From positions 64,319 to 128,318 of the forward strand of contig CAYXTA010000002.1 of the NCBI GenBank assembly GCA_964468315.1: a DNA stretch of 64,000 bases, in the 5' to 3' direction. The DNA comes from an uncultured Candidatus Saccharibacteria bacterium (GTDB lineage Bacteria; Patescibacteriota; Minisyncoccia; Phycocordibacterales; UBA9973). Shown piece by piece: positions 1,137-56,552 of this stretch; position 1 is the first letter of the stretch; every line of letters begins with the position of its first letter. The translations under genes were made by a program, and so were the position numbers. The notes below the pieces were generated by a model. That model saw nothing but the letters and a program-made list of their open reading frames with translations. It was not told the DNA's origin and ran no database searches.

Positions 1137-1655
1137 ATGAAAAAGAAAACAAAGATAATAAAAGCAACGCTTGGTTTTCTCACAGGAAGAGACGAGCTAT
1201 GGCTTGCAATAAAAGCTGATAAAATTGGTAAGGGTAAACTTAATGGATATGGTGGAAAAATTAAAAAAGGTGAAACACCAGAACAATGTATGGAAAGAGA
1301 ATTACCAGAAGAATCTGGAGTCACAGCACATAAAGAGTATTTTGAAAAAGTAGGGGTAATTAATTTTCATAATACAAAGAAAACTGGTGAGAAATTCATA
1401 TGCAGGGCATATATCTATTTAATAAGATTTTTTAAGGGAGAACCTAAAGAAACAGAAACAGGAGAAATGCTCAATCCGCAAAAATTTCTTAAAGACAGAT
1501 TGCCCTTAAGAAAACTTATGCCTGCTGATAAAGACTGGCTTCCATTAGTATTAAACGGACTAAAAGTTACAGGATCAGTTTTTTATGGACCAAACCAGAA
1601 AAAATTAATAAAGAAAAGCCAAATTAAAATAGTAAAAGTGTTGCCGAAAAATTAA
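1137..1655 (+). CDS. Nudix hydrolase
   Basis: Nudix box GGKIKKGETPEQCMERELPEESGV (Gx5Ex7REUxEExGU). Confidence 0.75.
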   Translation: MKKKTKIIKATLGFLTGRDELWLAIKADKIGKGKLNGYGGKIKKGETPEQCMERELPEESGVTAHKEYFEKVGVINFHNTKKTGEKFICRAYIYLIRFFKGEPKETETGEMLNPQKFLKDRLPLRKLMPADKDWLPLVLNGLKVTGSVFYGPNQKKLIKKSQIKIVKVLPKN

Positions 1656-1669
1656 TTTTCAAAAATCAA

Positions 1670-1700
1670 AAAATCCCCACAAATGTGGGGATTTTTATTT
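1670..1700. terminator. Bidirectional rho-independent terminator (Nudix/gyrB convergent)
   Basis: Hairpin atccccacaaatgtggggat followed by a T-run; sits between convergent genes. Confidence 0.6.
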
Positions 1701-3757
1701 TATATATCAATCTGTGCGAGCTTGGCATTAGACTGGATGAAAGATTTACGAGGTGGGACTTCAGAGCCCATGAGGATGTCGAAGACTTTATTTGCTTCTT
1801 CGGCATCATCGATATTTACTTTCTTGAGAACACGGTTTTTAGGATCCATAGTAGTTTCCCAGAGCTCTTCCGCATTCATTTCTCCGAGACCTTTATATCT
1901 TTGAATATGTACTTTGTTTGATTTCTTTTTTGGATTTTCTTCCTCTTCTTCCTCAGAATTTTCAAGGACTTCCCCTTCTGCAATTTCTTCTATTTCCATA
2001 TCTTGCTCCCCTGCTATTTTTATTCTTTCTTCATCTGTATAAGCATAGAAAATTTCTCTACCTTTTTTAATTTTATAAAGAGGTGGTTGAGCAATATAAA
2101 CATAACCAGCTTCTAAAACATTTCTGAAATATCTATAAAACAAAGTAAGTAAAAGAGTACGGATGTGCGCACCGTCGACGTCAGCATCTGTAGCGATAAT
2201 TATTTTGTGGTAACGAATTTTTTCTAAATCAAATGTATCGCCGATAGATGTACCCATAGCAATAACAAGATTTTTTATTTGCTCAGATCCAAGCATACGA
2301 TCGAGACGTGCACGCTCAACGTTTAGAATTTTTCCGCGAAGTGGAAGAATAGCTTGAGTTTTTCTATCACGTCCCATTTTTGCTGTACCTCCAGCAGAAT
2401 CTCCCTCCACGATGAATATTTCTGATTCAGATGCAGATTTACTTTGACAATCAGCAAGTTTACCAGGAAGAGTCATGCCTTCAAGTGCTCCTTTACGCAA
2501 AATAGAATCCTTCGCTGCTTTCGCTGCTTTACGAGCCTTGAGTGCAAGAATTGCTTTGTTGATTACTACTTTTGCCTCATCAGGATTTTCTTCAAGGAAA
2601 TTTACAAATGCTTCACCAAAAACTTTTGCAACAGCACCTTGAGCTTCCATTGATCCGAGTTTTGCTTTAGTCTGTCCTTCGAATTGAATTTCAGGAAGCT
2701 TTACAGAAACGACAGCCACGAGACCTTCAAGAACATCTTCACCAGTGAATCCTCCTTCGGATTCTTTCATCATTTCATTTTTCTTGCAGTAAGTATTCAA
2801 AGTACGAGTAAGTGCAGTTTTAAAACCAGCAATATGTGTACCACCTTCTGGTGTGTAGATGTTGTTTGCAAATGGAATTATTTTGTCATTTATATCATCA
2901 ACATATTTAAGTGCTATTTCAACACCAACATTGTCTTGTTCTTTTTCTACATAAAAAATTTTACTACTTAGAGATTTTTGTAATCTTGTTGTATATTTTA
3001 CAAGAGAAACAAGACCTCCTTCGAAATAAAATGTAGTAGATGGAATTTCTAAATTAAGTTCTTGTAAATAAACAACATCATCTACATTTATCTTGCCTTC
3101 ATATTTACGAGCATCCATTATACGAATACGGAGTTTTTTTACTAGATATGCTTGTTGGCGAAAACGATTTACTATCGTATCGTAATCAAAAACAACTCCT
3201 TCTTTAAAAATTTCTGGATCTGGTTTAAAAGTTATGATAGTACCGTGGGCTTTTGAAGAACCAACTTTTTTCACAGCGTATTTTTTCTTACCTTGTTCGT
3301 ATTCTTGAACAAATTTTGCACCATCATGATGTACTTCTGCTTTTGTGTGAGTAGAAAGAGCATTTACAACAGAAGCACCTACACCGTGCAAACCTCCAGA
3401 AACTTTGTAACCAGAATTTTCTCCACCGAATTTACCTCCAGCGTGAAGAGTCGTCATAACAGTTTCCAATGCAGAAACTTTTGTTTTTGGATGAATGTCT
3501 GTAGGAATACCACGGCCATTGTCTGTAACACGAATAATATCTCCTGGAAGAATAACTACTTCGATTTCATCACAAAATCCTCCCATGGCTTCGTCACGAG
3601 AGTTGTCGAATATTTCCCATACCAGGTGGTGCAAACCATCTATACCTGTTGTACCAATGTACATACCAGGACGGCGACGAACAGGTTCAAGGCCCTCTAA
3701 GACAGAGATTTGATCAGCGCCATACTTAGCCTTTTTTTCTTCCTTTTCTTTTGCCAT
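1700..3757 (-). CDS. gyrB: DNA gyrase subunit B
   Basis: N-terminal GHKL ATPase (VLEGLEPVRRRPGMYIGTT), Toprim (EGDSAGG) and C-terminal GyrB tail; 685 aa. Confidence 0.88.
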   Translation of the reverse strand: MAKEKEEKKAKYGADQISVLEGLEPVRRRPGMYIGTTGIDGLHHLVWEIFDNSRDEAMGGFCDEIEVVILPGDIIRVTDNGRGIPTDIHPKTKVSALETVMTTLHAGGKFGGENSGYKVSGGLHGVGASVVNALSTHTKAEVHHDGAKFVQEYEQGKKKYAVKKVGSSKAHGTIITFKPDPEIFKEGVVFDYDTIVNRFRQQAYLVKKLRIRIMDARKYEGKINVDDVVYLQELNLEIPSTTFYFEGGLVSLVKYTTRLQKSLSSKIFYVEKEQDNVGVEIALKYVDDINDKIIPFANNIYTPEGGTHIAGFKTALTRTLNTYCKKNEMMKESEGGFTGEDVLEGLVAVVSVKLPEIQFEGQTKAKLGSMEAQGAVAKVFGEAFVNFLEENPDEAKVVINKAILALKARKAAKAAKDSILRKGALEGMTLPGKLADCQSKSASESEIFIVEGDSAGGTAKMGRDRKTQAILPLRGKILNVERARLDRMLGSEQIKNLVIAMGTSIGDTFDLEKIRYHKIIIATDADVDGAHIRTLLLTLFYRYFRNVLEAGYVYIAQPPLYKIKKGREIFYAYTDEERIKIAGEQDMEIEEIAEGEVLENSEEEEEENPKKKSNKVHIQRYKGLGEMNAEELWETTMDPKNRVLKKVNIDDAEEANKVFDILMGSEVPPRKSFIQSNAKLAQIDI

Positions 3758-31992: not shown

Positions 31993-32673
31993 ATGATAAA
32001 ATACTTTATAAGTATATCATATATGACTTTTTTAGACACTATCTTGGATTTTATATTTCCTGTGAATTGTGTTTCTTGTGGTAAAAAAGGACAAGATTTT
32101 TGTTTATCTTGTTTATATGAATCTAGAATTGCCGAAAGAGAGACAAATCATTGGATTTATCCTGTTTTTGATTATAGGCACCCACCAATAAAGAAGGCTA
32201 TCTGGCTTTTAAAATATAAAGGTAAGCGCCGGATCGCGGAAATTTTCGGTGAAGTTTTGTATGGGAAAATAATGGAGGAATTATCGGAACTCTCGATATT
32301 TGAAAATTTCCGCGAGCCGATCCTTATCCCCATTCCCCTTTCTTCTAAACGTCTTCGTGAAAGAGGTTTTAATCAAGCAGAACTTATTTGTAAAAAAATT
32401 AAAAGTTTAGACAAAGAAAATATTTTTACTTTAGAAACAAAAATCTTAATCAAACCTAAAGATACAAAACATCAAGCGCAAATAGAAAATAGAAATGAAA
32501 GATTAAAAAATCTGATTGGTTCATTTGATATAAATTTTCCTGAAAAAATACAAGGAAGAAATATTATTCTAATAGATGATGTGACGACCACAGGTGCAAC
32601 ATTTGCTGAAGCAAAGAAAATCCTAAAATCCCATGGTGCTAAAAAAATTATCGGTTTTGCTGTGGCGCATTAA
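31993..32673 (+). CDS. comFC: ComF-family competence protein (phosphoribosyltransferase domain)
   Basis: N-terminal Cys4 (CVSCG...CLSC) and C-terminal PRTase motif IILIDDVTTTGAT. Confidence 0.8.
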   Translation: MIKYFISISYMTFLDTILDFIFPVNCVSCGKKGQDFCLSCLYESRIAERETNHWIYPVFDYRHPPIKKAIWLLKYKGKRRIAEIFGEVLYGKIMEELSELSIFENFREPILIPIPLSSKRLRERGFNQAELICKKIKSLDKENIFTLETKILIKPKDTKHQAQIENRNERLKNLIGSFDINFPEKIQGRNIILIDDVTTTGATFAEAKKILKSHGAKKIIGFAVAH

Positions 32674-33287
32674 GATTTTTTATTTTTGACGAACTCTTTA
32701 AATGCTTCTGTGTCGTTTTTTGACCCAAGTACGAAAACTTGGCTCATATCAAGTACGACATATTGAGTATTATATTGTGTGAATCTTGATAAGAAATCTT
32801 TTTCTATCAGACCATCAGCATTATTATCTTTGATAATCTGCAACTCTTTGTCTGAAATTTTATCAAGACCAAATTTCCATCTTCCCCATATTTTTTTATT
32901 TAATGGGTTTTTAATATCTAAAAGAATGGAATGAATAGTACTTCTCTGTTGGTAATCTTTACTCCCACTCTTTATGTAAGCTTTTGCTCGACTTCTACTG
33001 CCAGTAAAATACAATCCGTGTTTACCACCTAATTCTCCAGTAAAAGAATCTTTTCCTCTATCCTGATCAATCAATGTACCACCATGGTATACAATACTAT
33101 CAACTATACTCTCAGGGAAAATACTATCTAAATATTCTGAATATTGTTCTTTTGTTCCTATTATTGAAATTTCTGGATGTTGCTCAAACACAAAATCAAC
33201 ACCTTCCTTTATTTGAGGTTTTTCAATCTTACTTTCTTCTTGTTGCACTTTTTCAATTTTTGGAATATTTTTAGGAAATCCTTCCAT
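32670..33287 (-). CDS. Hypothetical protein with PARP/H-Y-E-type ADP-ribosyltransferase-like motifs
   Basis: VYHGGT (H68), GKHGLYFTGSRSRAKAY (Y93, Y104), QYNTQYVVLD (Q175). Order and spacing mirror PARP1 HGS...GKGIYFA...Y...YNEYIVYD, with Gln in the catalytic Glu position. Confidence 0.35.
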   Translation of the reverse strand: MEGFPKNIPKIEKVQQEESKIEKPQIKEGVDFVFEQHPEISIIGTKEQYSEYLDSIFPESIVDSIVYHGGTLIDQDRGKDSFTGELGGKHGLYFTGSRSRAKAYIKSGSKDYQQRSTIHSILLDIKNPLNKKIWGRWKFGLDKISDKELQIIKDNNADGLIEKDFLSRFTQYNTQYVVLDMSQVFVLGSKNDTEAFKEFVKNKKS

Positions 33288-33306
33288 ATAATTTATAATT
33301 TCTTAG

Positions 33307-33395
33307 CGGAGCCGGACGGATTCGAACCGTCGAGGGGTTTTGAAGCCCCTGCCTCTTTAGCAAAGAGGTACGTTAGACCACTCTGACACGGCTCC
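33307..33395 (-). tRNA. tRNA-Ser (anticodon GCT), long variable arm
   Basis: Reverse complement folds as ggagccg...D-arm...cctct-ttGCTaa-agagg-long variable arm-T-arm ggttcgaatcc...cggctcc-g. Confidence 0.85.
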
Positions 33396-33503
33396 TATAT
33401 TATACTAAACTTACAAACCAATAACACATAACACTTCTACAGTTTTGACTTTATCATGTTTGGCTCTATTTTTCCATAAAAGATAAAATGCTACAATGTA
33501 ACT

Positions 33504-34265
33504 ATGTTATTTAGACGTAAAACAAAAACTGGAGATAGTGTTGAAGAAGTAGAAAAATTAAAAAAATTACTGAATGCAAAATCAGAAATGGTTTCTATTG
33601 GTGCACACCAAGTGCGCACTTCCCTTTCTGCTATCAAATGGATTATAAAAATGTTCCTCGATGGTGATTTAGGTAAGCTTACAGCAGAACAAGAAAATCT
33701 TTTGCGAAAAGCATATGACGGAAATGATAAAGCGATAAATCTCGTAAGTGAAATCTTGCTCGTGAATAAATCTGAGGAAGTTGTCGAAAAAAAATATGTC
33801 TTCGAAAAAGTGAATATCGTAGAAATGATTGAGAATACTATTTTCGATTTCTCTGGTGAATCTCTCTGGCGTGGCATTGAGATAATTTTCCTCAAAACAG
33901 AAACATTATTACCAGAAACAAAAGTTGATAAAGAAAAAATATTAGTTGTATTGCAAAACTTAATAGAGAATGCGATTAAATACAGCAAATATCACGGGAA
34001 AATATTCGTCTCAGTTAAAACAGAAAAAGAAAATATAGAAATCTCAGTCAAAGATGCAGGCATAGGTATAAACGAAGATTCAAAAACAAAAATATTTGAA
34101 AAATTCTATCGTACAGAAAATGCACAAAAGAAAGAGGCTATGGGTTCTGGTATCGGCCTTTACACAACGAAAGATATAGTAGAGAAACACGGAGGCAAAA
34201 TATGGTTTGAATCAAAAGAAAACGAAGGCACAACATTTTTCGTGTCTTTACCAATATCAAAATAG
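33504..34265 (+). CDS. Small cytoplasmic sensor histidine kinase (HisKA + HATPase_c only)
   Basis: H-box GAHQVRTSLSAI; N-box NLIENAIKYS; G-boxes DAGIGI and GSGIGL. Confidence 0.8.
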   Translation: MLFRRKTKTGDSVEEVEKLKKLLNAKSEMVSIGAHQVRTSLSAIKWIIKMFLDGDLGKLTAEQENLLRKAYDGNDKAINLVSEILLVNKSEEVVEKKYVFEKVNIVEMIENTIFDFSGESLWRGIEIIFLKTETLLPETKVDKEKILVVLQNLIENAIKYSKYHGKIFVSVKTEKENIEISVKDAGIGINEDSKTKIFEKFYRTENAQKKEAMGSGIGLYTTKDIVEKHGGKIWFESKENEGTTFFVSLPISK

Positions 34266-34304
34266 CTTAGTTGCGAGGCTTTTAGTATGTAGTACAATAT
34301 ACGT

Positions 34305-34676
34305 ATGTCCAAAAAAATACTTATAATCGAAGATGATTTATTCTTACAAGGCCTAGAAGTTACAAAACTTAAAAAAGATGGTTATGAAATAGAAACGGCT
34401 GTAAATAGTGTAGAAGCTTTTAAAATATTAGAAAAAATGAAACCCGATATGATATTACTCGATCTTCTCTTACCAGAAGTGGATGGTTTTATGATTCTAG
34501 AAAAAATACGCGAGAATAAAGACATGGTGACTATTCCTGTTATAGTATTCTCAAATCTTTCTGAAGATAAAGACATAAAACGCGCACAGAAACTCGGCAT
34601 CAGTGAATTCATGATCAAGTCCAACTTTACGCTCGATGAGCTAACAAAGAAAATCAAAGAACTCATTGGTGCTTAA
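34305..34676 (+). CDS. Single-domain response regulator (receiver only)
   Basis: KILIIEDD...MILLDLLLPEVDGF...VIVFSNL...K. Confidence 0.8.
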   Translation: MSKKILIIEDDLFLQGLEVTKLKKDGYEIETAVNSVEAFKILEKMKPDMILLDLLLPEVDGFMILEKIRENKDMVTIPVIVFSNLSEDKDIKRAQKLGISEFMIKSNFTLDELTKKIKELIGA

Positions 34677-36846
34677 AACAATGCAATTGCATGACAAACT
34701 CGAAGAGACTTTTCGCCTCGACATAAACCAGAAAAAAGCTCTAAAAAAATTAGGGCTTATATCTCTACACGATTTACTTTTTTACTTCCCTACTCGGTAT
34801 TCTGATATGAGTCAGATAAAACAAATCAAAGATTTGGAAGTCGGTGAAAATGCCACAGTCTACGGAAAAATTTCAAAATTAAAAACAAAAAAAGGATTCA
34901 AATCAAAAATCCCTATGGGAGAAGCAGAGATAGAAGACCTTTCTGGAAAGATAAAAATTATTTGGTTTCATCAAGCATACTTGGCAAAAATGATACACGA
35001 AGGAGATAATGTAAAACTCACTGGTCGTGTAACAGAAAACAAAAGTGGTAAATATCTTACAAATCCAGAATTTGAAAAAGCACCAAACTTACCGATAGAT
35101 TCACACGACACACTTTTCGCAAAAGAAGGACAAAGAATAGATGAAGGTTTGTCATATCCAATATATCGTGAAACAAATGGCATCACTTCAAAATGGTTTT
35201 ATCATACAATAGAAAAAATATTTCACGCTGGAGTACTTAAAGAATTAGAAGATTATATACCAGAAGAAATAATTGAAAAATATCATTTACCAAGTTTGCG
35301 TACTGCCCTAGTATGGATACATACACCAAAAAATGAAAAAGATTCTACTTCTGCTCGCAAACGTTTTGCTTTCGAAGAAGTTTTCTTTATTCAATTGCAA
35401 AGACAAAAAGATAAACTTGAATATAAAAGAAATAAATCATTTCAAATAACAACAAATAAAAAGCTTGTAGATGAATTCTTAGAACGCTTCCCTTTTTCTC
35501 CGACAAAAGGACAATTAGATGCAATAGAAACTATTTCAAAAGATATTTCAAAAACAGAACCAATGTCTCGTCTTCTTGAAGGTGATGTAGGATCTGGTAA
35601 AACTGCAGTGGCTGCTACGGCTGCATATAGTGCGGTTACACAAAGACCAAATGGTCAGAATTTTGGAAACCTCCAAGTCGCTTATATGGCTCCGACAGAA
35701 ATATTAGCGACTCAACATTTTGAAAGTTTTATAAAATATTTTAAACATTTACCCATAAACATAGGACTCATCACTGGTTCTGGTTGTAGAAAATTTCCTT
35801 CAAAAGTAAATCCTGATGGGTGGACAACTATCTCACGCGCACAACTTTTGAAATGGACAGCAAATGGAGAAATGCCGATACTCATAGGTACACACGCTCT
35901 TATTCAAAAATCAGTAAAATTCAAAAATCTATCACTCGTCGTAATAGATGAACAACACCGCTTCGGCACTATGCAAAGAAAAAATCTAGTTCGTAAAGAC
36001 GGCTTCGCACCACATTTACTTTCAATGACCGCGACACCTATACCCCGTACTCTTGCACTCACGATTTATGGTGACCTTGATTTAACATTGCTTGATGAAA
36101 TGCCAGCAGGAAGAAAACAAGTAATCACTGATATCATCACTCCCGACAAGCGCGACGAAACGTATGAAAAAATAAAATTGGAAATGGCCAAAGGAAGACA
36201 GCTCTATGTCATCTGCCCTCGCATAGATGAACCAGATCCGGAGAAAGAAACTGCGCTCAATATGAAGTCTGCTGTTGCTGAAGCAAAACGTTTAAAGAAA
36301 GAAGTTTTTAAAGATTGTGAGATTGGAGTGCTTCACAGTAAAATGACTAAGCAGAAAAAAGAAGAAGTTATGGCGGAGTTCAGCGATGGAAAAATTGATA
36401 TTTTAGTAGCTACTTCTGTTATAGAAGTCGGCGTTAATGTTCCCAATGCAACAATAATTATCATCGAGGGGGCCGAAAGATTTGGCCTTGCTCAACTTCA
36501 TCAACTTCGTGGACGTGTAATACGTAGCAATGACCAAGCATACTGTTATGTATTCGCTGATGCAAAAACTGAAAAGACAATGCAAAGATTGAAAGCATTG
36601 AAAACTGCAAAAAATGGTTTTGAATTATCAGAGCTTGATTTAACTCTTCGTGGTGCAGGTGAACTCTCAGGTGCGAAACAATGGGGTATCACCGACCTCG
36701 GCATGGAAGCAATAAAAAATATAAAAATGGTTGAAGCCGCTCGTACCGAAGCAACTAACTTAATTTCCTCTGACCAAGATTTACACAACTATCCCCTCCT
36801 CAAAAAAATACTTTCAACAAAGCACTTAGAATTGCATTTTGAATAG
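34666..36846 (+). CDS. recG: ATP-dependent DNA helicase RecG
   Basis: Wedge/OB N-terminus, DEAH-type SF2 helicase (GDVGSGKT...VIDEQHRFG). Confidence 0.88.
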   Translation: MVLKTMQLHDKLEETFRLDINQKKALKKLGLISLHDLLFYFPTRYSDMSQIKQIKDLEVGENATVYGKISKLKTKKGFKSKIPMGEAEIEDLSGKIKIIWFHQAYLAKMIHEGDNVKLTGRVTENKSGKYLTNPEFEKAPNLPIDSHDTLFAKEGQRIDEGLSYPIYRETNGITSKWFYHTIEKIFHAGVLKELEDYIPEEIIEKYHLPSLRTALVWIHTPKNEKDSTSARKRFAFEEVFFIQLQRQKDKLEYKRNKSFQITTNKKLVDEFLERFPFSPTKGQLDAIETISKDISKTEPMSRLLEGDVGSGKTAVAATAAYSAVTQRPNGQNFGNLQVAYMAPTEILATQHFESFIKYFKHLPINIGLITGSGCRKFPSKVNPDGWTTISRAQLLKWTANGEMPILIGTHALIQKSVKFKNLSLVVIDEQHRFGTMQRKNLVRKDGFAPHLLSMTATPIPRTLALTIYGDLDLTLLDEMPAGRKQVITDIITPDKRDETYEKIKLEMAKGRQLYVICPRIDEPDPEKETALNMKSAVAEAKRLKKEVFKDCEIGVLHSKMTKQKKEEVMAEFSDGKIDILVATSVIEVGVNVPNATIIIIEGAERFGLAQLHQLRGRVIRSNDQAYCYVFADAKTEKTMQRLKALKTAKNGFELSELDLTLRGAGELSGAKQWGITDLGMEAIKNIKMVEAARTEATNLISSDQDLHNYPLLKKILSTKHLELHFE

Positions 36847-36847
36847 A

Positions 36848-39800
36848 TTATTTCTCAATACTTACTTTAAAATTTAAAGTATCAACTTTTACCTCTTCCC
36901 CACTATTAGCCTCAAACTTTATTTCACTCACCAAAATAGTTTTCTTAAAATCAGCTTCGAATTTTTCAATTAGATTTTTTCCTACTTCGTCTGTTTCAAT
37001 AGAAAGTGAAATGACATCTGAAGGAGTTAGACCTACTTTTTTACGCATATCTTGAATAGCACGAACTAATTCGCGATAATTCCCTTCTTCTTTTAACTCT
37101 GGAGTTATTTCTGTATTAAGAATTGTATAACTTTCAATATTTTCATCAAAAATAACTTCTTTAATATTTACTTCATCTTTTATAAGTTCAATATATTCTT
37201 CACCAAGTTTCATTCCTTTTATTTTCAATTCAGATAATGGTTGGCGTACAGGAATACTTGCTTTCTGACGATCTTTCAAACCAAGAGAAACATTATTTCT
37301 AACACTTTGCATTTCTTCGATAACTTTATTATTTACATCTTGATTAATTAGCCACTCACAAAGATGCACAGACTCTGGTTCATTTTTATTTTTTAATTTT
37401 TGATAAATATCTTCTGAAGCGAAAGGTGCAAATGGAGCCATAATCTTTGTAAGATTTTTTAATACAAAATGCAATGTTTGTTTTGCTTCTTTATCTCCTT
37501 CCTTTATGCGTTCTCGTGAGCGACGCAAATACCAAGTAGAAAGATCATCGATAAATTCTCTTACAGCTCTAACTGGTTCGAGGGTTTTATAATTATCAAG
37601 ATTCTCTGTAACATTTTTCAAAAGCTCATTAAAACGAGCGAGTATCCAAACATCTAAAACATTTTCTGATTCTATTTTTTCAAAATTTTCTAAATCTTTT
37701 TCTCTATAAAGTTCATAAAAGGCTACAACGTTATAAAGAAGTCCAAAGAATTGTCTGTGTAATTCCATAACAGTACGCTCGTCGAAATTTTTAGATTCTC
37801 CTGGTTGATTCACAGAGTACATCCAAAGACGAATAGTATCTGCTCCATATTTTTCAAACATAATCCATGGGTCGACAACATTACCACGAGACTTAGACAT
37901 CTTTTGTCCATTTGCATCGAGAATGTGTCCAAGACAAACAACATTTTTGTAAGCATTATTTGCTTCATCTGAAAGTAAATTTGCTACTGCGTGCAAAGTA
38001 TAAAACCATCCACGAGTCTGATCTATCGCTTCTGAAATGTAATCTGCTTTTGCAGGTGCAAAGTTTATTTCTCCTCCGAGTTTATGATTTTGTGCATACG
38101 GCATTGCTCCAGAATCAAACCAAACATCCATAACTTCTGAAGTACGAGTTAATGTTTCTCCATTATATTCCAATCTTACTTGGTCAATATATGGTTTATG
38201 AAAATCGAGTTCGAAATTTTGATTGTGCGGTAATGGTGTAAAATCCAATTCTTTTATTTCTGCATTTTGGAAATAGTGGAAATCTTTCAAATCTGAAACC
38301 ATAGAGAGAGTTTCTTCTATATTTTTCGCTTGTGCTCCAGCAAACAAAAGCCATGCTGGTCCACCATGAGTAACAAATAAAATATTTTTGTCTTTATATT
38401 TTTCTTCTACTTCGTACAAAAATGCTGTAACACGATTCTTTACATCTTGATATGATTCATCTTCTGCTATATGAGATTTAAAATTCTCAGGAGTTTTTAT
38501 ATGAGATTTATGATACTCTTCCCAATTTTTTCCGTCAAAAGATTCGATACCCATTTCACGAAGTCTTTCGTCCACTATCACTTTCTCTTTATCTAAACCT
38601 ATCTTTTCTCTAACTATTTCTGCTGTTTCAAGAGTACGAATAAAATCTGAAGTAAAAATCAAATCAATATTTTTATCTTTCATAGTTTCTGCAGATTTTC
38701 CTGCTTGTTCAATACCGTCAGCGTCTAAATGCCATTCCCCGTTAGGAATAGAACAAATAATACTTTTCTTATTTGCCTCTGTTTCACCATGACGCATTAC
38801 AAAATATTTATTTCCACTTTTCTTTGTATTTTTTTTCAAATCTTCTAAAGAAGAAATAACTTTATAGCTTCCATCTTCTTTCTGCCAAATAGGAAGTGGT
38901 GTTCCCCAATAACGATCACGAGAAATAGCCCAGTCTTTTATACCATCTAGCCATTCACCGAATCTTCCCTCTTTTATATGTTTTGGTTCCCAATTTATTT
39001 TTTCATTTCCATCAAGCAATTGCTGACGAAGTGCACTCATACGGAAATACCAAGATGTACGTGCATAATAAATAAGTGGTGTATCACAACGCCAGCAGTG
39101 TGGATAGCTGTGCATATGATTTTCTTTTTTAAACAATAATCCTCGAGAGGTAAGGTTGTCGATAATATCCACAGCGAGTGTCGGCTTACCATTTTCATCT
39201 GTTTCTTTAACATATCTTCCTTCTAAAAATTCTGTTCCTGAAACAAATTTTCCTTCTTCGTTTACTGTATGATATTTCGGTAAATTAACTTTTGTACCAA
39301 GATCGAAATCATCTGCTCCATACATAACAGCAGTGTGAACTATTCCTGTGCCATCTGTAGTTGTCACAAAATCAGCCCCGTACACCTTAAAAGCATTTTT
39401 TAAATTTCCTATTTGTGTTGGAACTTCTTTTTCAATATTATTTTTCAAATATAGAAATAGCGGTTCGTATTCTAGTCCAATTAAATCTTTACCTTTTATT
39501 TTTTCTAAAATTTCATATTCTTCAGTAATTACTGATAATCTACTTTCAGCTAAAATTAAAAATTCTTTATCTGTTTTTATTTTTACGTATTCAATATCTT
39601 CACCTACAGCTAAAGCGACATTGCCCGGTAACGTCCAAGGAGTTGTTGTCCATGCAAGCAAATAGACTTCACCAGATATGTTTTCTGAATGGTCTGGTGA
39701 CTTCCCCCGAGGACCTGAAGAAAATATTTCTGGTGAAGTAACACAGAACTTCACATAAACAGAAAGATCTTTCACGTCTTTATATGCTCCCGGCTGAGAA

Positions 39801-40387
39801 AGTTCATGACTTGAAAGAGCAGTACCACAACGTGTACACCAAGGAAGTACTTTGAAATCTTTATATAGGTGTCCGCGTTCATTTGCTTTCGCAACGACGC
39901 CCCACAAAGCTTCAATGTAATTATTTCGGTAAGTCACATATGGATTTTCTTGATCTACCCAATATCCCATACGATATGTAAATTTTTCCCATAATTCTAA
40001 AAATTGCCAGACGCTTTCTTTACATTGATCATTAAATTTTGCTACTCCGTATTCTTCAATAGATTTTTTAGAATTAAGACCAAGGGCTTTTTCTACTTGT
40101 AATTCCACAGGCAGACCATGAGTGTCCCAACCAGCTTTTCTTGGCACATGAAAACCTTGCATTGTCTTATAGCGAGGAATCACATCTTTGAAAGACCTTG
40201 CTTCTAAGTGGTGTATTCCAGGTTTACCATTTGAAGTCGGAGGTCCTTCATAAAATATATATTCACCTTTTGAATTTTCAGGTTTATTTAAACTCTTCAA
40301 AAAGATATCATTCTTTTTCCAAAATTCTAAAACTCCTTCTTCACGAAGTGCTGTCTCTGATTTAATTGTTTCATTTTTTTCTTCCAT
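36848..40387 (-). CDS. ileS: Isoleucyl-tRNA synthetase with in-frame inserted histidine-phosphatase domain (1179 aa)
   Basis: HIGH-type motif PPTSNGKPGIHH, editing domain (TTPWTLPGN), WAISRDRYWGTP, DVWFDSG, KMSKS (GQKMSKSRGN). Extra about 170 aa between W501 and KPYID. Confidence 0.9.
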   Translation of the reverse strand: MEEKNETIKSETALREEGVLEFWKKNDIFLKSLNKPENSKGEYIFYEGPPTSNGKPGIHHLEARSFKDVIPRYKTMQGFHVPRKAGWDTHGLPVELQVEKALGLNSKKSIEEYGVAKFNDQCKESVWQFLELWEKFTYRMGYWVDQENPYVTYRNNYIEALWGVVAKANERGHLYKDFKVLPWCTRCGTALSSHELSQPGAYKDVKDLSVYVKFCVTSPEIFSSGPRGKSPDHSENISGEVYLLAWTTTPWTLPGNVALAVGEDIEYVKIKTDKEFLILAESRLSVITEEYEILEKIKGKDLIGLEYEPLFLYLKNNIEKEVPTQIGNLKNAFKVYGADFVTTTDGTGIVHTAVMYGADDFDLGTKVNLPKYHTVNEEGKFVSGTEFLEGRYVKETDENGKPTLAVDIIDNLTSRGLLFKKENHMHSYPHCWRCDTPLIYYARTSWYFRMSALRQQLLDGNEKINWEPKHIKEGRFGEWLDGIKDWAISRDRYWGTPLPIWQKEDGSYKVISSLEDLKKNTKKSGNKYFVMRHGETEANKKSIICSIPNGEWHLDADGIEQAGKSAETMKDKNIDLIFTSDFIRTLETAEIVREKIGLDKEKVIVDERLREMGIESFDGKNWEEYHKSHIKTPENFKSHIAEDESYQDVKNRVTAFLYEVEEKYKDKNILFVTHGGPAWLLFAGAQAKNIEETLSMVSDLKDFHYFQNAEIKELDFTPLPHNQNFELDFHKPYIDQVRLEYNGETLTRTSEVMDVWFDSGAMPYAQNHKLGGEINFAPAKADYISEAIDQTRGWFYTLHAVANLLSDEANNAYKNVVCLGHILDANGQKMSKSRGNVVDPWIMFEKYGADTIRLWMYSVNQPGESKNFDERTVMELHRQFFGLLYNVVAFYELYREKDLENFEKIESENVLDVWILARFNELLKNVTENLDNYKTLEPVRAVREFIDDLSTWYLRRSRERIKEGDKEAKQTLHFVLKNLTKIMAPFAPFASEDIYQKLKNKNEPESVHLCEWLINQDVNNKVIEEMQSVRNNVSLGLKDRQKASIPVRQPLSELKIKGMKLGEEYIELIKDEVNIKEVIFDENIESYTILNTEITPELKEEGNYRELVRAIQDMRKKVGLTPSDVISLSIETDEVGKNLIEKFEADFKKTILVSEIKFEANSGEEVKVDTLNFKVSIEK
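38290..38830 (-). other. Histidine-phosphatase (phosphoglycerate-mutase family) domain embedded in IleS, approx. aa 520-700
   Basis: YFVMRHGETEANKK (RHG catalytic motif, codons at 38789..38794), DLIFTSDFIRTLETAEIV, IVDERLREMGIESFDGKNWEEY, LFVTHGGPAWLL (second His motif, codon at 38366..38368). Confidence 0.75.
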
Positions 40388-53452: not shown

Positions 53453-53490
53453 TATGTTTATTACAAACTAAAATAGAATTTATTTCACTG

Positions 53491-53564
53491 TGCGCCCTCA
53501 TGGATTCGAACCATGGACCCCAGAGGTATAAGCTCTGTGCTCTAACCAACTGAGCTAAGGGCGC
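53491..53564 (-). tRNA. tRNA-Ile (anticodon TAT)
   Basis: Reverse complement folds as gcgccct-ta-gctc-agttggtta-gagc-a-cagag-ctTATac-ctctg-gggtc-catgg-ttcgaat-ccatg-agggcgc-a. Confidence 0.8.
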
Positions 53565-55944: not shown

Positions 55945-56158
55945 ATTGCAGAACTCTTTTTTAGGTTCGCATATTAATGGTTGTTGCGGCCACAGTTTTC
56001 GCTTCCTTTTGTGAAATTACGTTGTTACTTGAACAACTTTCATGTTGGCTCTTTGCCAGGCTAAACTTTTTCATGTTTTTTGTTTTTTTAATTAAGTTAA
56101 GAACTATAAACTATAAAAAGAATAGCAAAAAGAAAAACAATGAGCAAGTTTTATTTTG

Positions 56159-56552
56159 TGGAACTGTGGAGAATTGAACTCCAGTGCAGAAGGTATTTGC
56201 AAAGAAATCTACATGTGTAGCGAGCTTTTTTGTTTAAATCAAAAAATTCTTAAGCGAGCGAAATATTTTTTGATCGATTCTCTTTGTTTTGGAAGAAAGT
56301 CGAGAAAGTCTTTTTCCTATCCCGATAATATTATGCCTCAACACATATATCGGAAGTCTATGAGTGAGACACCAGCCGAGCCTATTAGGCGAAAGCTGGA
56401 GCGAAAGCGAAATCTTTCATACCGAAGTATGGAGATGCTTTAGCCTTAGAAGCTAATTTTGCAATTAAGCTATGAACGAAATTTTACGAGTATACGTTCA
56501 TCCTCGACATGCATCAATAGTAAACAGTCTCCTGTCTATGCCTTGCAGTCCC
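56159..56552 (-). ncRNA. ssrA: tmRNA (transfer-messenger RNA)
   Basis: 5' GGGACUG pairs with 3' CAGUUCC-A (G3:U70 Ala identity pair). T-arm GGAG-UUCAAUU-CUCC; GCAUGUCGAGG...CUCGUAAAA blocks as in E. coli tmRNA. Tag frame ...AKLASKAKASPYFGMKDFAFAPAFA ends with a double stop UAA UAG. Lies 2 nt after the smpB stop. Confidence 0.75.

Follow-up and report, generated by a model that had tools for sequence, protein, structure and literature searches.

What is a small protein with the motifs of an ADP-ribosyltransferase (ART) doing directly behind a serine tRNA gene in an uncultured Candidatus Saccharibacteria bacterium? The gene lies in a 64,000-nucleotide (nt) stretch of contig CAYXTA010000002.1 (assembly GCA_964468315.1, forward-strand positions 64,319 to 128,318), which we call the window and whose numbering we use throughout (Table 1). 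An initial annotation of this DNA had described its 205-residue product as PARP-like, with Gln in the catalytic position. Homology identifies the protein as a stand-alone, chromosomal member of the ART-PolyVal family. From sequence comparison and structural models we consider it probable that it is a phage-derived mono-ADP-ribosyltransferase which takes part in conflict between phage and host or involving mobile elements, and that it was acquired at tRNA loci and has stayed near them.

ART-PolyVal was defined computationally in 2017 by Iyer et al. from phage and plasmid polyvalent proteins. Its describers related it to poly(ADP-ribose) polymerases (PARPs) and to diphtheria and cholix toxins, characterized it by a His, a Tyr and an acidic residue (Asp), predicted that it modifies host proteins, and placed it with Tox-ART-HYD2 of polymorphic toxins and with one toxin-antitoxin class (PMC5512222). 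The only Pfam match of the window protein is to this family (PF18760, 'ADP-ribosyltransferase in polyvalent proteins'; E = 1.8e-5, 25.9 bits). Homologues matched at E-values of 1e-27 and weaker score above the cut-off of that model (P0056, 42.7 bits; P0064, 39.6 bits; P0062, 34.8 bits), with P0056 and the window protein matching each other at E = 9e-28, and two cut-off-passing homologues also give faint matches to PARP and Tpt1, both ADP-ribosyltransferase families. A word-indexed search returned 269 homologues at E ≤ 1e-3, most of them about 200 residues long; those bearing names came from Patescibacteria or Paceibacteria metagenome-assembled genomes (MAGs), one had already been named 'ADP-Ribosyltransferase in polyvalent proteins' by JGI, and a precomputed PF18760 match is present in most of the 120 homologues listed among the 269. 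In the exhaustive search 1175 cluster representatives lie at E ≤ 1e-3, and 512 of them reach E ≤ 1e-10. Some representatives, of 600 to 5,837 residues, hold the module in full (query residues ~14-204), often in two or three copies; IMG/VR viral contigs carry it within open reading frames (ORFs) of 1,500-3,300+ residues, and P0124 (2,341 amino acids (aa)) lies in a phage-like gene array. Stand-alone copies were found in 38 species-representative genomes, all of them candidate-phyla-radiation MAGs except two with doubtful labels. Because homologues pass the Pfam cut-off and giant proteins are among the relatives, the window protein is best placed as a stand-alone chromosomal ART-PolyVal member. 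The family is already defined and automatically annotated, and the protein is not an orphan. Searches elsewhere returned little: the NCBIfam, PHROGs and PADLOC profile libraries held no match to it, PDB sequence searches with the single protein and with the profile gave nothing meaningful (matches to botulinum toxin and phospholipase D, at E > 0.1, were set aside as noise), and tblastn against 50,697 phage records found no match.

The predicted fold agrees with this placement. AF2 models of the full-length protein (predicted local distance difference test (pLDDT) 83.7, predicted template modelling (pTM) score 0.79) and of residues 26-205 with a deeper alignment (pLDDT 89.7, pTM 0.85) have the same topology, with N-terminal helices first, a C-terminal helix last and six strands between (Table 1). 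Foldseek searches against BFVD, a set of viral predicted structures, gave 29 matches at E ≤ 1e-3 (best 9.4e-6), many named PolyVal ADP-ribosyltransferase or ART-PolyVal-like, and against the PDB (350,542 chains) the top ranks were almost all ART-fold, led by the PARP family (tankyrase 1/2, PARP1, 2, 4, 14 and 15) and followed by Arr, Tpt1, ParT and pertussis/cholera-type toxins. The ART fold foreseen by the initial annotation is thus recovered by PF18760 and by the models, and its assignment is secure at the family level; a particular closeness of the window protein to PARPs is suggestive only. A chance resemblance of motifs in a protein that is not ART-fold could be argued from the sub-threshold Pfam score, the empty PDB sequence searches and a non-significant profile alignment to single PARPs (below). 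Yet homologues score above the Pfam cut-off, PDB searches with two independent AF2 models bring up ART-fold chains almost exclusively, and BFVD PolyVal ARTs are matched at E-values down to 9e-6, which leaves this explanation extremely improbable.

The putative active-site motifs sit where the initial annotation had placed them. Numbered directly, H68 falls in IVYHGGT, Y93 in GKHGLYFT and Y104 in AKAY, with QYNTQYVVLD at residues 171-180; Y104 lies 11 residues and Q175 82 residues past Y93, a PARP-like spacing (HG ... G-x-Y-F ... Y (11) ... x-Y-V-V-x-D-x-x-Q-V) that we take to match the motifs of PARP1 and TNKS2. In the predicted ART fold the His stands on strand 1 and the Tyr on strand 2. Conservation was read from 278 aligned homologous domains spanning the family. 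Position 68 is His in 255 of 266 aligned residues (96%), position 93 is aromatic in 246 of 269 (92%; Y 181, F 54, W 11) and position 104 is Tyr (163) or Phe (32) in 195 of 241, so that all three are conserved in homologues. Phe at position 94 and Gln at position 183 each occur in 234 domains, Asp at position 158 in 241 of 259 aligned residues, and L187, G188, S189, D192 and F196 are nearly invariant. Position 175 is Glu in 94 domains, Gln in 93, Asp in 7 and V, T, S, N or another residue in the rest, and the commonest triads are H-Y-Q (76) and H-Y-E (66).

At strand 5, where the published description has an acidic residue (Asp), the window protein has Gln175. That this Gln occupies the position equivalent to the catalytic Glu, as first proposed, is a reasonable reading drawn from secondary-structure register and motif alignment: Q175 opens predicted strand 5 and aligns with the Glu of the family prototype, the ART of the Roseovarius Plymouth podovirus 1 (RPP1) virion RNA polymerase (CBX87992.1). 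The motifs of that prototype (LYHGTG / GLFFTNS..ARDY / VDLQKP / YDGAIV / DGEIMVV) put Glu at 175 and Asp at 158, and D158 may be the 'D' of the published H-Y-D description. An hhalign comparison of the family profile with the catalytic sequences of PARP1 and tankyrase 2 aligned only the GIYF...Y stretch, without significance, and therefore cannot confirm that Q175 corresponds to Glu988.

Within the window protein's own clade (P0001-P0054, down to 49% identity), position 175 is Gln in 53 of 54 members, and ~55 residues are conserved in at least 95% of members, including H68, G69, Y93, F94, Y104, D158, Q175 and Q183. Other conserved residues are specific to the clade, namely K132, W134, W137, K138, D142 and a loop, D76-R77-G78-K79-D80-x-F82-T83. 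Here D76, R77, G78, K79, D80, F82 and T83 are each kept in at least 95% of the 44 clade members sharing 49-61% identity with the window protein, 41 of 54 members carry the 8-mer DRGKDSFT unchanged, and AF2 confidence is lower (pLDDT 60-78 over residues 76-85). Such conservation in the alignment shows strong purifying selection within this clade on the NAD+-pocket signature (H68-G69, Y93-F94 and Y104) and on Gln175; Gln at this position is therefore a selected state, not decay.

The same Gln raises the alternative that the protein has the ART fold but transfers nothing, and serves as a sensor, decoy or scaffold solely by binding NAD+, ADP-ribose or a partner. H-Y-E enzymes need the Glu for efficient catalysis, and its replacement by Gln greatly lowers the activity of diphtheria toxin and stops PARP1 from elongating chains; in addition, no reversal enzyme or immunity gene lies nearby, and position 175 varies widely across the family. 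However, many active mono-ARTs of the PARP family lack the Glu, and H68, G69, Y93, F94, Y104 and Q175 are kept together with an acidic/basic loop in at least 95% of a clade diverged to 49% identity, so we judge loss of activity quite unlikely. As a phage-derived, stand-alone ART-PolyVal enzyme, the protein would instead bind NAD+ and mono-ADP-ribosylate a target. By analogy, Gln in place of Glu would make chain elongation unlikely and leave the transfer of a single ADP-ribose; catalysis may be slow, substrate-assisted, or aided by an acid from the clade-specific DRGKD loop, and the role would be one in conflict, not in housekeeping.

The Pfam model (140 positions) starts at about residue 58 and thus misses a highly conserved N-terminal block of ~45 residues. 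Among chromosomal copies, pairwise amino-acid identity is 69-73% over residues 22-70, 11-31% over residues 71-157 and 40% over residues 158-200. An RNA-level cause of the block was rejected: codon identity at identical residues is 0.61-0.62 within it versus 0.51-0.63 elsewhere and is not raised, so it is the protein that is constrained, rather than an element in RNA or DNA. Giant proteins share the block, in the form (K/E)G(V/I)xxxFExNPELxxIGTxxQYSxYLDTIFPxSKVKDIVYHG, as well as the C-terminal FEPEQIHILGS motif. The window protein itself looks chimeric in sequence, with an N-terminal block of the chromosomal type and a core of another affinity. Its core (residues 59-187) is closest, at 50-60% identity, to P0015, P0051 and P0011 in phage-like contigs, which lack the canonical form of the block (the conserved IKEGVDFVFEQ-type sequence), and it also resembles the cores inside the giant proteins P0122 and P0139. 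A separate observation concerns the giant proteins P0123, P0124, P0131, P0133, P0136, P0145, P0147 and P0171 (600-5,800 aa), in which two or three whole modules stand in tandem with near-constant N- and C-terminal blocks and highly divergent middles, resembling a conserved scaffold with diversifying inserts.

Relatives of the window protein stand directly after tRNA genes far more often than expected by chance. A tRNA gene on the same strand lies 2-180 nt upstream of 14 of the 37 evaluable chromosomal ART copies, versus 13 of 328 other gene proxies at the same loci (4.0%; Fisher p = 5e-9, test run with n = 36). These tRNAs have at least eight identities, including Ser with five anticodons (Table 1), and at six more loci a same-strand tRNA-Ser lies 0.5-3.8 kilobases (kb) upstream with genes between, such as a serine recombinase or RelB/ParE. 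Metagenome contigs, scanned independently, repeat the adjacency at ~10 of 47 loci, with new Ile(UAU) and Trp(CCA) cases, and in two phage-like contigs core relatives of the window ART lie inside tRNA arrays. At many tRNA-ART junctions TATAAT/TATAAA-like boxes end ~5-7 nt before the ATG, which suggests leaderless ART transcripts, and where the gap is only 2-6 nt the transcript must, judging from the sequence, start in or before the tRNA. The window has a TATAAT box just upstream of tRNA-Ser(GCU) (33399-33404) and a TATAAA box (33292-33297) in the spacer between tRNA and ART, ending 4 nt before the ATG with no clear Shine-Dalgarno sequence, and its ART gene may be transcribed either leaderless or together with tRNA-Ser.

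This placement could mean that the enzyme is directed at RNA, acting on tRNA or RNA ends like Tpt1/KptA, RhsP2 or PARP10/TRPT1, with the adjacent tRNA serving as substrate, decoy or replacement supply. The strength of the association, its recurrence with at least eight tRNA identities and in metagenome contigs, and the phage-like tRNA arrays (one with a tRNA 5 nt past the stop codon and Ro60/TROVE nearby) point that way, as do the isoelectric point (pI) of the window protein core (9.4 for residues 60-205) and several basic or aromatic clade-conserved residues (R77, K79, R100, K132, W134, W137 and K138). Yet mobile elements in general tend to insert at tRNA genes, and att-like scars are seen here, so that adjacency needs no functional link. 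Moreover, 60-75% of copies have no nearby tRNA, including relatives 65-72% identical; the polyvalent copies in IMG/VR contigs have none within 5 kb; the family median pI is 5.7, unlike that of typical nucleic-acid enzymes; and the window protein has no Tpt1 or DarT profile match. On balance an RNA-directed enzyme seems unlikely.

Under the preferred reading, a phage-derived enzyme of conflict, the traffic of mobile elements at tRNA genes would have brought the gene to its place beside chromosomal tRNAs. Stretches of 15-19 nt from the tRNA 3' end, repeated in direct orientation 150-200 nt past the tRNA (L008, 879-893; L026, 5674-5690; L033, 1871-1889), look like scars of integration and excision. 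In L008, 18 nt separate the end of the repeat from the ART start, which gives the impression that an older tRNA-ART junction was split by an insertion. That ART is the cargo of an island bounded by tRNA repeats was rejected: no repeat lies downstream of the gene, and those found lie between tRNA and gene. Serine recombinase or resolvase genes stand divergently and immediately upstream of ART at L011 (5331-5810), L016 (4385-5704), L031 (526-1842) and L051 (3861-4553), and the cross-locus ORF comparison put such genes divergently upstream in only 3-4 loci; at L016 the recombinase lies between tRNA-Ser and the ART gene.

Several observations on the tRNA genes stand apart from these questions. The phage-like contig ERZ27267608 k141_645369 (L053, 499-9196) carries nine tRNA genes, a Ro60/TROVE + vWA protein and an ART core relative, with a tRNA-Arg starting 5 nt past the stop codon of that relative and a suppressor-type tRNA whose anticodon, UUA, would read the UAA stop codon. 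A proposed homology between the 536-aa gene that lies upstream of phage-type relatives and a Ro60/TROVE protein on another contig was rejected. A well-formed tRNA-Ser(ACU) with A34 (loop TTACTAA) occurs in at least eight candidate-phyla-radiation genomes, usually as a divergent pair with tRNA-Ser(GCU) (L009, 5646-5915; L021, 2231-2480; L028, 5663-5905; L038, 10626-10866; also L008, L017, L018 and L042). A serine tRNA with A34 is unusual for bacteria, and our literature search found no paper on A34 tRNA-Ser(ACU). The window also encodes, at 53490-53564 on the minus strand, a tRNA-Ile(UAU), the type found directly upstream of ART copies in other genomes; this tRNA decodes AUA without the usual lysidine route.

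Comparison of the window with three related contigs (L001, L003 and L004) revealed a block of unusually low divergence that comprises the ART gene, tRNA-Ser and the intergenic DNA up to the kinase gene. Across these contigs the ART gene is 99.2-100% and the tRNA 100% identical, and DNA identity of flanking genes is 88-91% (kinase), 91-95% (comFC), 93% (recG), 92% (ileS) and 96% (pilB). Against L001 and L004 only 8 differences fall in the ~846 nt of the block, with mismatches dense up to 32654 and again from 33518; five of the eight lie in the ART gene, all of them synonymous third-position changes, and comFC and the kinase gene are 91.5% and 88% identical. L003 is identical over 32515-33784, with flanks 90-95% identical. 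The block ends sharply, at the ART stop codon on one side and the kinase gene start on the other. Had its 618 nt diverged as far as the flanks, the ART gene should show ~35-50 differences. Selection on the protein cannot account for the lack of synonymous changes, whereas recombination or a recent sweep can; with three comparators only, we treat as a lead the idea that the tRNA-Ser + ART block was recently imported by recombination, or swept, between strains. Adjacency and sweep together allow a bolder proposal, a tRNA-linked cassette: the enzyme would ADP-ribosylate tRNA or the translation machinery, be expressed from or with the upstream tRNA, pass from phage tRNA arrays to chromosomal tRNA loci and back, for instance by recombining at homologous tRNA sequence, and spread through strains as a unit. 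We hold this to be improbable.

The immediate surroundings bear out what the initial annotation had reported. The 205-aa ORF is present on the minus strand with an ATG start; ORF calls, ARAGORN and Rfam place it between a comFC-like gene and tRNA-Ser; a histidine kinase and a response regulator adjoin on the other strand; and no macrodomain partner lies nearby. In precomputed annotation covering ~8-53 kb of the window, the neighbours have no macro, NADAR or ARH domain, and housekeeping genes are found there. The comFC-like and ART genes are convergent, their stop codons overlapping by 4 nt, and the former is not a conserved neighbour of the family in the cross-locus ORF comparison. No paralogue or silent cassette of the ART gene was found within the window, and a compositional anomaly was rejected, the gene having 30.7% G+C and the window 33.0%. 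The protein has no secretion or trafficking domain and a hydrophilic N-terminus without a signal peptide, and is most likely cytoplasmic.

A conserved protein partner was sought by all-against-all comparison of ORFs at 38 loci, in which no gene family other than ART occurs at more than five; close relatives of the window ART lie in unrelated neighbourhoods, some in phage-like contigs. These neighbourhoods bear on whether the protein acts as a toxin akin to Tox-ART-HYD2, in either a toxin-antitoxin or a polymorphic-toxin system. That idea draws on the grouping of ART-PolyVal with Tox-ART-HYD2 and a toxin-antitoxin class by its describers (PMC5512222) and on one homologue that adjoins RelB/ParE and AbiEii genes. 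However, the gene has no adjacent small partner (tRNA lies upstream, and convergent, overlapping comFC downstream), no neighbour is conserved across the 38 loci, and the protein has neither a secretion or trafficking domain nor a signal peptide, all of which makes a toxin very unlikely. As a side observation, recG clusters at 33504-36846 of the window with genes for a histidine kinase that lacks a sensor (253 aa) and a response regulator of one domain (123 aa). Kinase and regulator recur in L011, L038 and L044, and recG in L009, L026/L027, L038 and L044; from genome to genome, the side of this cluster that ART adjoins varies, as does the tRNA that it follows.

How the protein relates to described ARTs can be set out system by system. 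With ART-PolyVal it shares the strand-1 His, the strand-2 aromatic residue, the LN(I/V)KNP strand, the D-G strand and the C-terminal (E/Q)-x-V-V ... Q-I-H-I-L-G-S motifs, both terminal blocks being as in the giant phage proteins. It differs in being a single-domain ORF of 205 aa among chromosomal housekeeping genes rather than a segment of a multidomain virion protein, whereas the family is described as embedded in a large multidomain phage or conjugative protein; in its Gln, where the prototype has Glu; in its own DRGKDSFTGE loop; and in that chromosomal copies often lie directly downstream of a tRNA gene. PARPs and tankyrases provide its best PDB structural matches, and by its motifs, with Gln in place of Glu, it resembles the H-Y-[non-E] mono-ART PARPs. 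Yet structural E is only ~0.015 with a template modelling (TM) score of ~0.35, the triad is H-Y-Q, the N- and C-terminal helices differ, the helical regulatory domain is missing, and there is no PF00644 match, which two homologues give weakly and below threshold (E about 0.01). To Tox-ART-HYD2 and Arr it is linked by the describers' grouping (PMC5512222) and by the presence of Arr among its weak fold matches, but it lacks an Asp at 175, a toxin-delivery domain, an immunity gene and an antibiotic-resistance context. The comparison with Tpt1/KptA and DarT proposed at the outset upheld a common fold but no profile match to either. Tpt1 (8tfi) is a weak Foldseek match (E = 0.18), and homologue P0070 has a sub-threshold PTS_2-RNA match; the window protein has no PF01885 profile match and lacks the catalytic Arg-His-Arg-Arg set of Tpt1. 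DarT likewise has the ART fold, but the window protein has no DarT profile match in Pfam or PADLOC and no DarG-like macrodomain partner in the annotated span of the window, ~8-53 kb.

Several results weigh against a phage-derived mono-ADP-ribosyltransferase of conflict and temper our preference for it. The protein's own PF18760 score is below the gathering cut-off of 31.2 bits, and among PDB structures it finds weak matches, none of which reaches E ≤ 1e-3 (best E = 0.014-0.017, TM about 0.35). Position 175 is neither Glu, Gln nor Asp in ~1/4 of the family and may not be essential; the nearly invariant D158 could be the family's key acid instead. With no partner for immunity or reversal, a lone ART should do its own cell no harm, and the same would hold for a protein that is inactive or tightly specific. 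No PADLOC defence model matches, and the searchable literature shows no biochemical or experimental study of any ART-PolyVal member.

Table 1. Features of the ART gene, its product and its surroundings. Nucleotide positions are those of the window; gaps run from the upstream tRNA to the ART start codon.
Feature	Position	Strand	Basis and remarks
Stand-alone ART-PolyVal-type gene, 205 aa (H68 / Y93 / Q175)	32670..33287	-	ATG start; ORF, PF18760, homologues, AF2 models, Foldseek
comFC-like gene, convergent neighbour	31993..32673	+	ORF; weak Pribosyltran match in precomputed annotation
tRNA-Ser(GCU), directly upstream of ART gene	33306..33395	-	ARAGORN; Rfam RF00005, 44.7 bits
18-nt spacer TAAGAAATTATAAATTAT, tRNA-Ser to ART ATG	33288..33305	-	read directly from sequence
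Histidine kinase	33504-34265	other strand than ART	ORF and annotation
Response regulator	34305-34676	other strand than ART	ORF and annotation
Low-divergence block: ART gene, tRNA-Ser and intergenic DNA up to kinase gene	32655..33500		strain comparison
Highly conserved N-terminal block, codons 22-70	33078..33224	-	EKPxIKEGVDFVFEQxPExxxIGTKEQYSEYLDxIFPESxVxxIVYHG; ends in strand 1, H68 codon 33084-33086
Clade-specific loop DRGKDSFTGE between strands 1 and 2, codons 76-85	33033..33062	-	clade conservation
Strand 2 and helix, GLYFTGSRSRAKAY, codons 93-104	32976..33011	-	Y93 codon 33009-33011, Y104 codon 32976-32978; column statistics
Codon D158, immediately before predicted strand 4	32814..32816	-	column statistics; aligns with D of YDGAIV in RPP1 prototype
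Codon Q175, first residue of predicted strand 5	32763..32765	-	catalytic-Glu-equivalent position by register and prototype alignment
Predicted strand 1, holds H68	residues 66-70		AF2; followed by a loop
Predicted strand 2, holds Y93	residues 92-95		AF2; followed by helix with Y104
Predicted strand 3	residues 117-123		AF2
Predicted strand 4, preceded by D158	residues 159-162		AF2
Predicted strand 5, starts at Q175	residues 175-178		AF2, both models
Predicted strand 6	residues 184-186		AF2
Upstream tRNA Ser(GCU)	gap 18 nt		window
Upstream tRNA Ser(ACU)	gap 34-178 nt		L008, L009, L017, L021, L028
Upstream tRNA Ser(GGA)	gap 63 nt		L012/L013
Upstream tRNA Ser(UGA)	gap 89 nt		L024
Upstream tRNA Ser(CGA)	gap 121 nt		L030
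Upstream tRNA Arg(CCG)	gap 71 nt		L010
Upstream tRNA Trp(CCA)	gap 5 nt		L035
Upstream tRNA Ile(UAU)	gap 2-6 nt		L009 second copy, L038, L044

Two further features of the window are recorded here in their own right. An isoleucyl-tRNA synthetase of 1179 aa (36848-40387, minus strand) has, by precomputed Pfam annotation, a histidine-phosphatase domain (His_Phos_1, RHGE motif) inserted between the halves of its catalytic core, and a tmRNA with the tag AKLASKAKASPYFGMKDFAFAPAFA is encoded at 56158-56552 on the minus strand.

The annotation as an ART is in itself correct but unsurprising; what is new is the adjacency to tRNA genes, the conservation of the N-terminal block and the sweep among strains, observations that make the function of the family testable. 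Few predicted enzymatic domains are commoner in phage polyvalent proteins than ART-PolyVal, and a small, soluble, single-domain version is a much easier entry for biochemistry and structure than a virion protein of 2,000-5,000 residues. The window protein also represents a large candidate-phyla-radiation subfamily with a naturally fixed Gln at the Glu position. If it is a domesticated phage mono-ART with a protein target, the finding would be useful but ordinary. The placement beside tRNA genes and the sweep of the block give a testable lead, either to a target in tRNA or translation or to a route by which phage genes enter at tRNA loci, and a tRNA-linked cassette, if true, would be a new kind of tRNA-coupled, NAD+-dependent conflict module.

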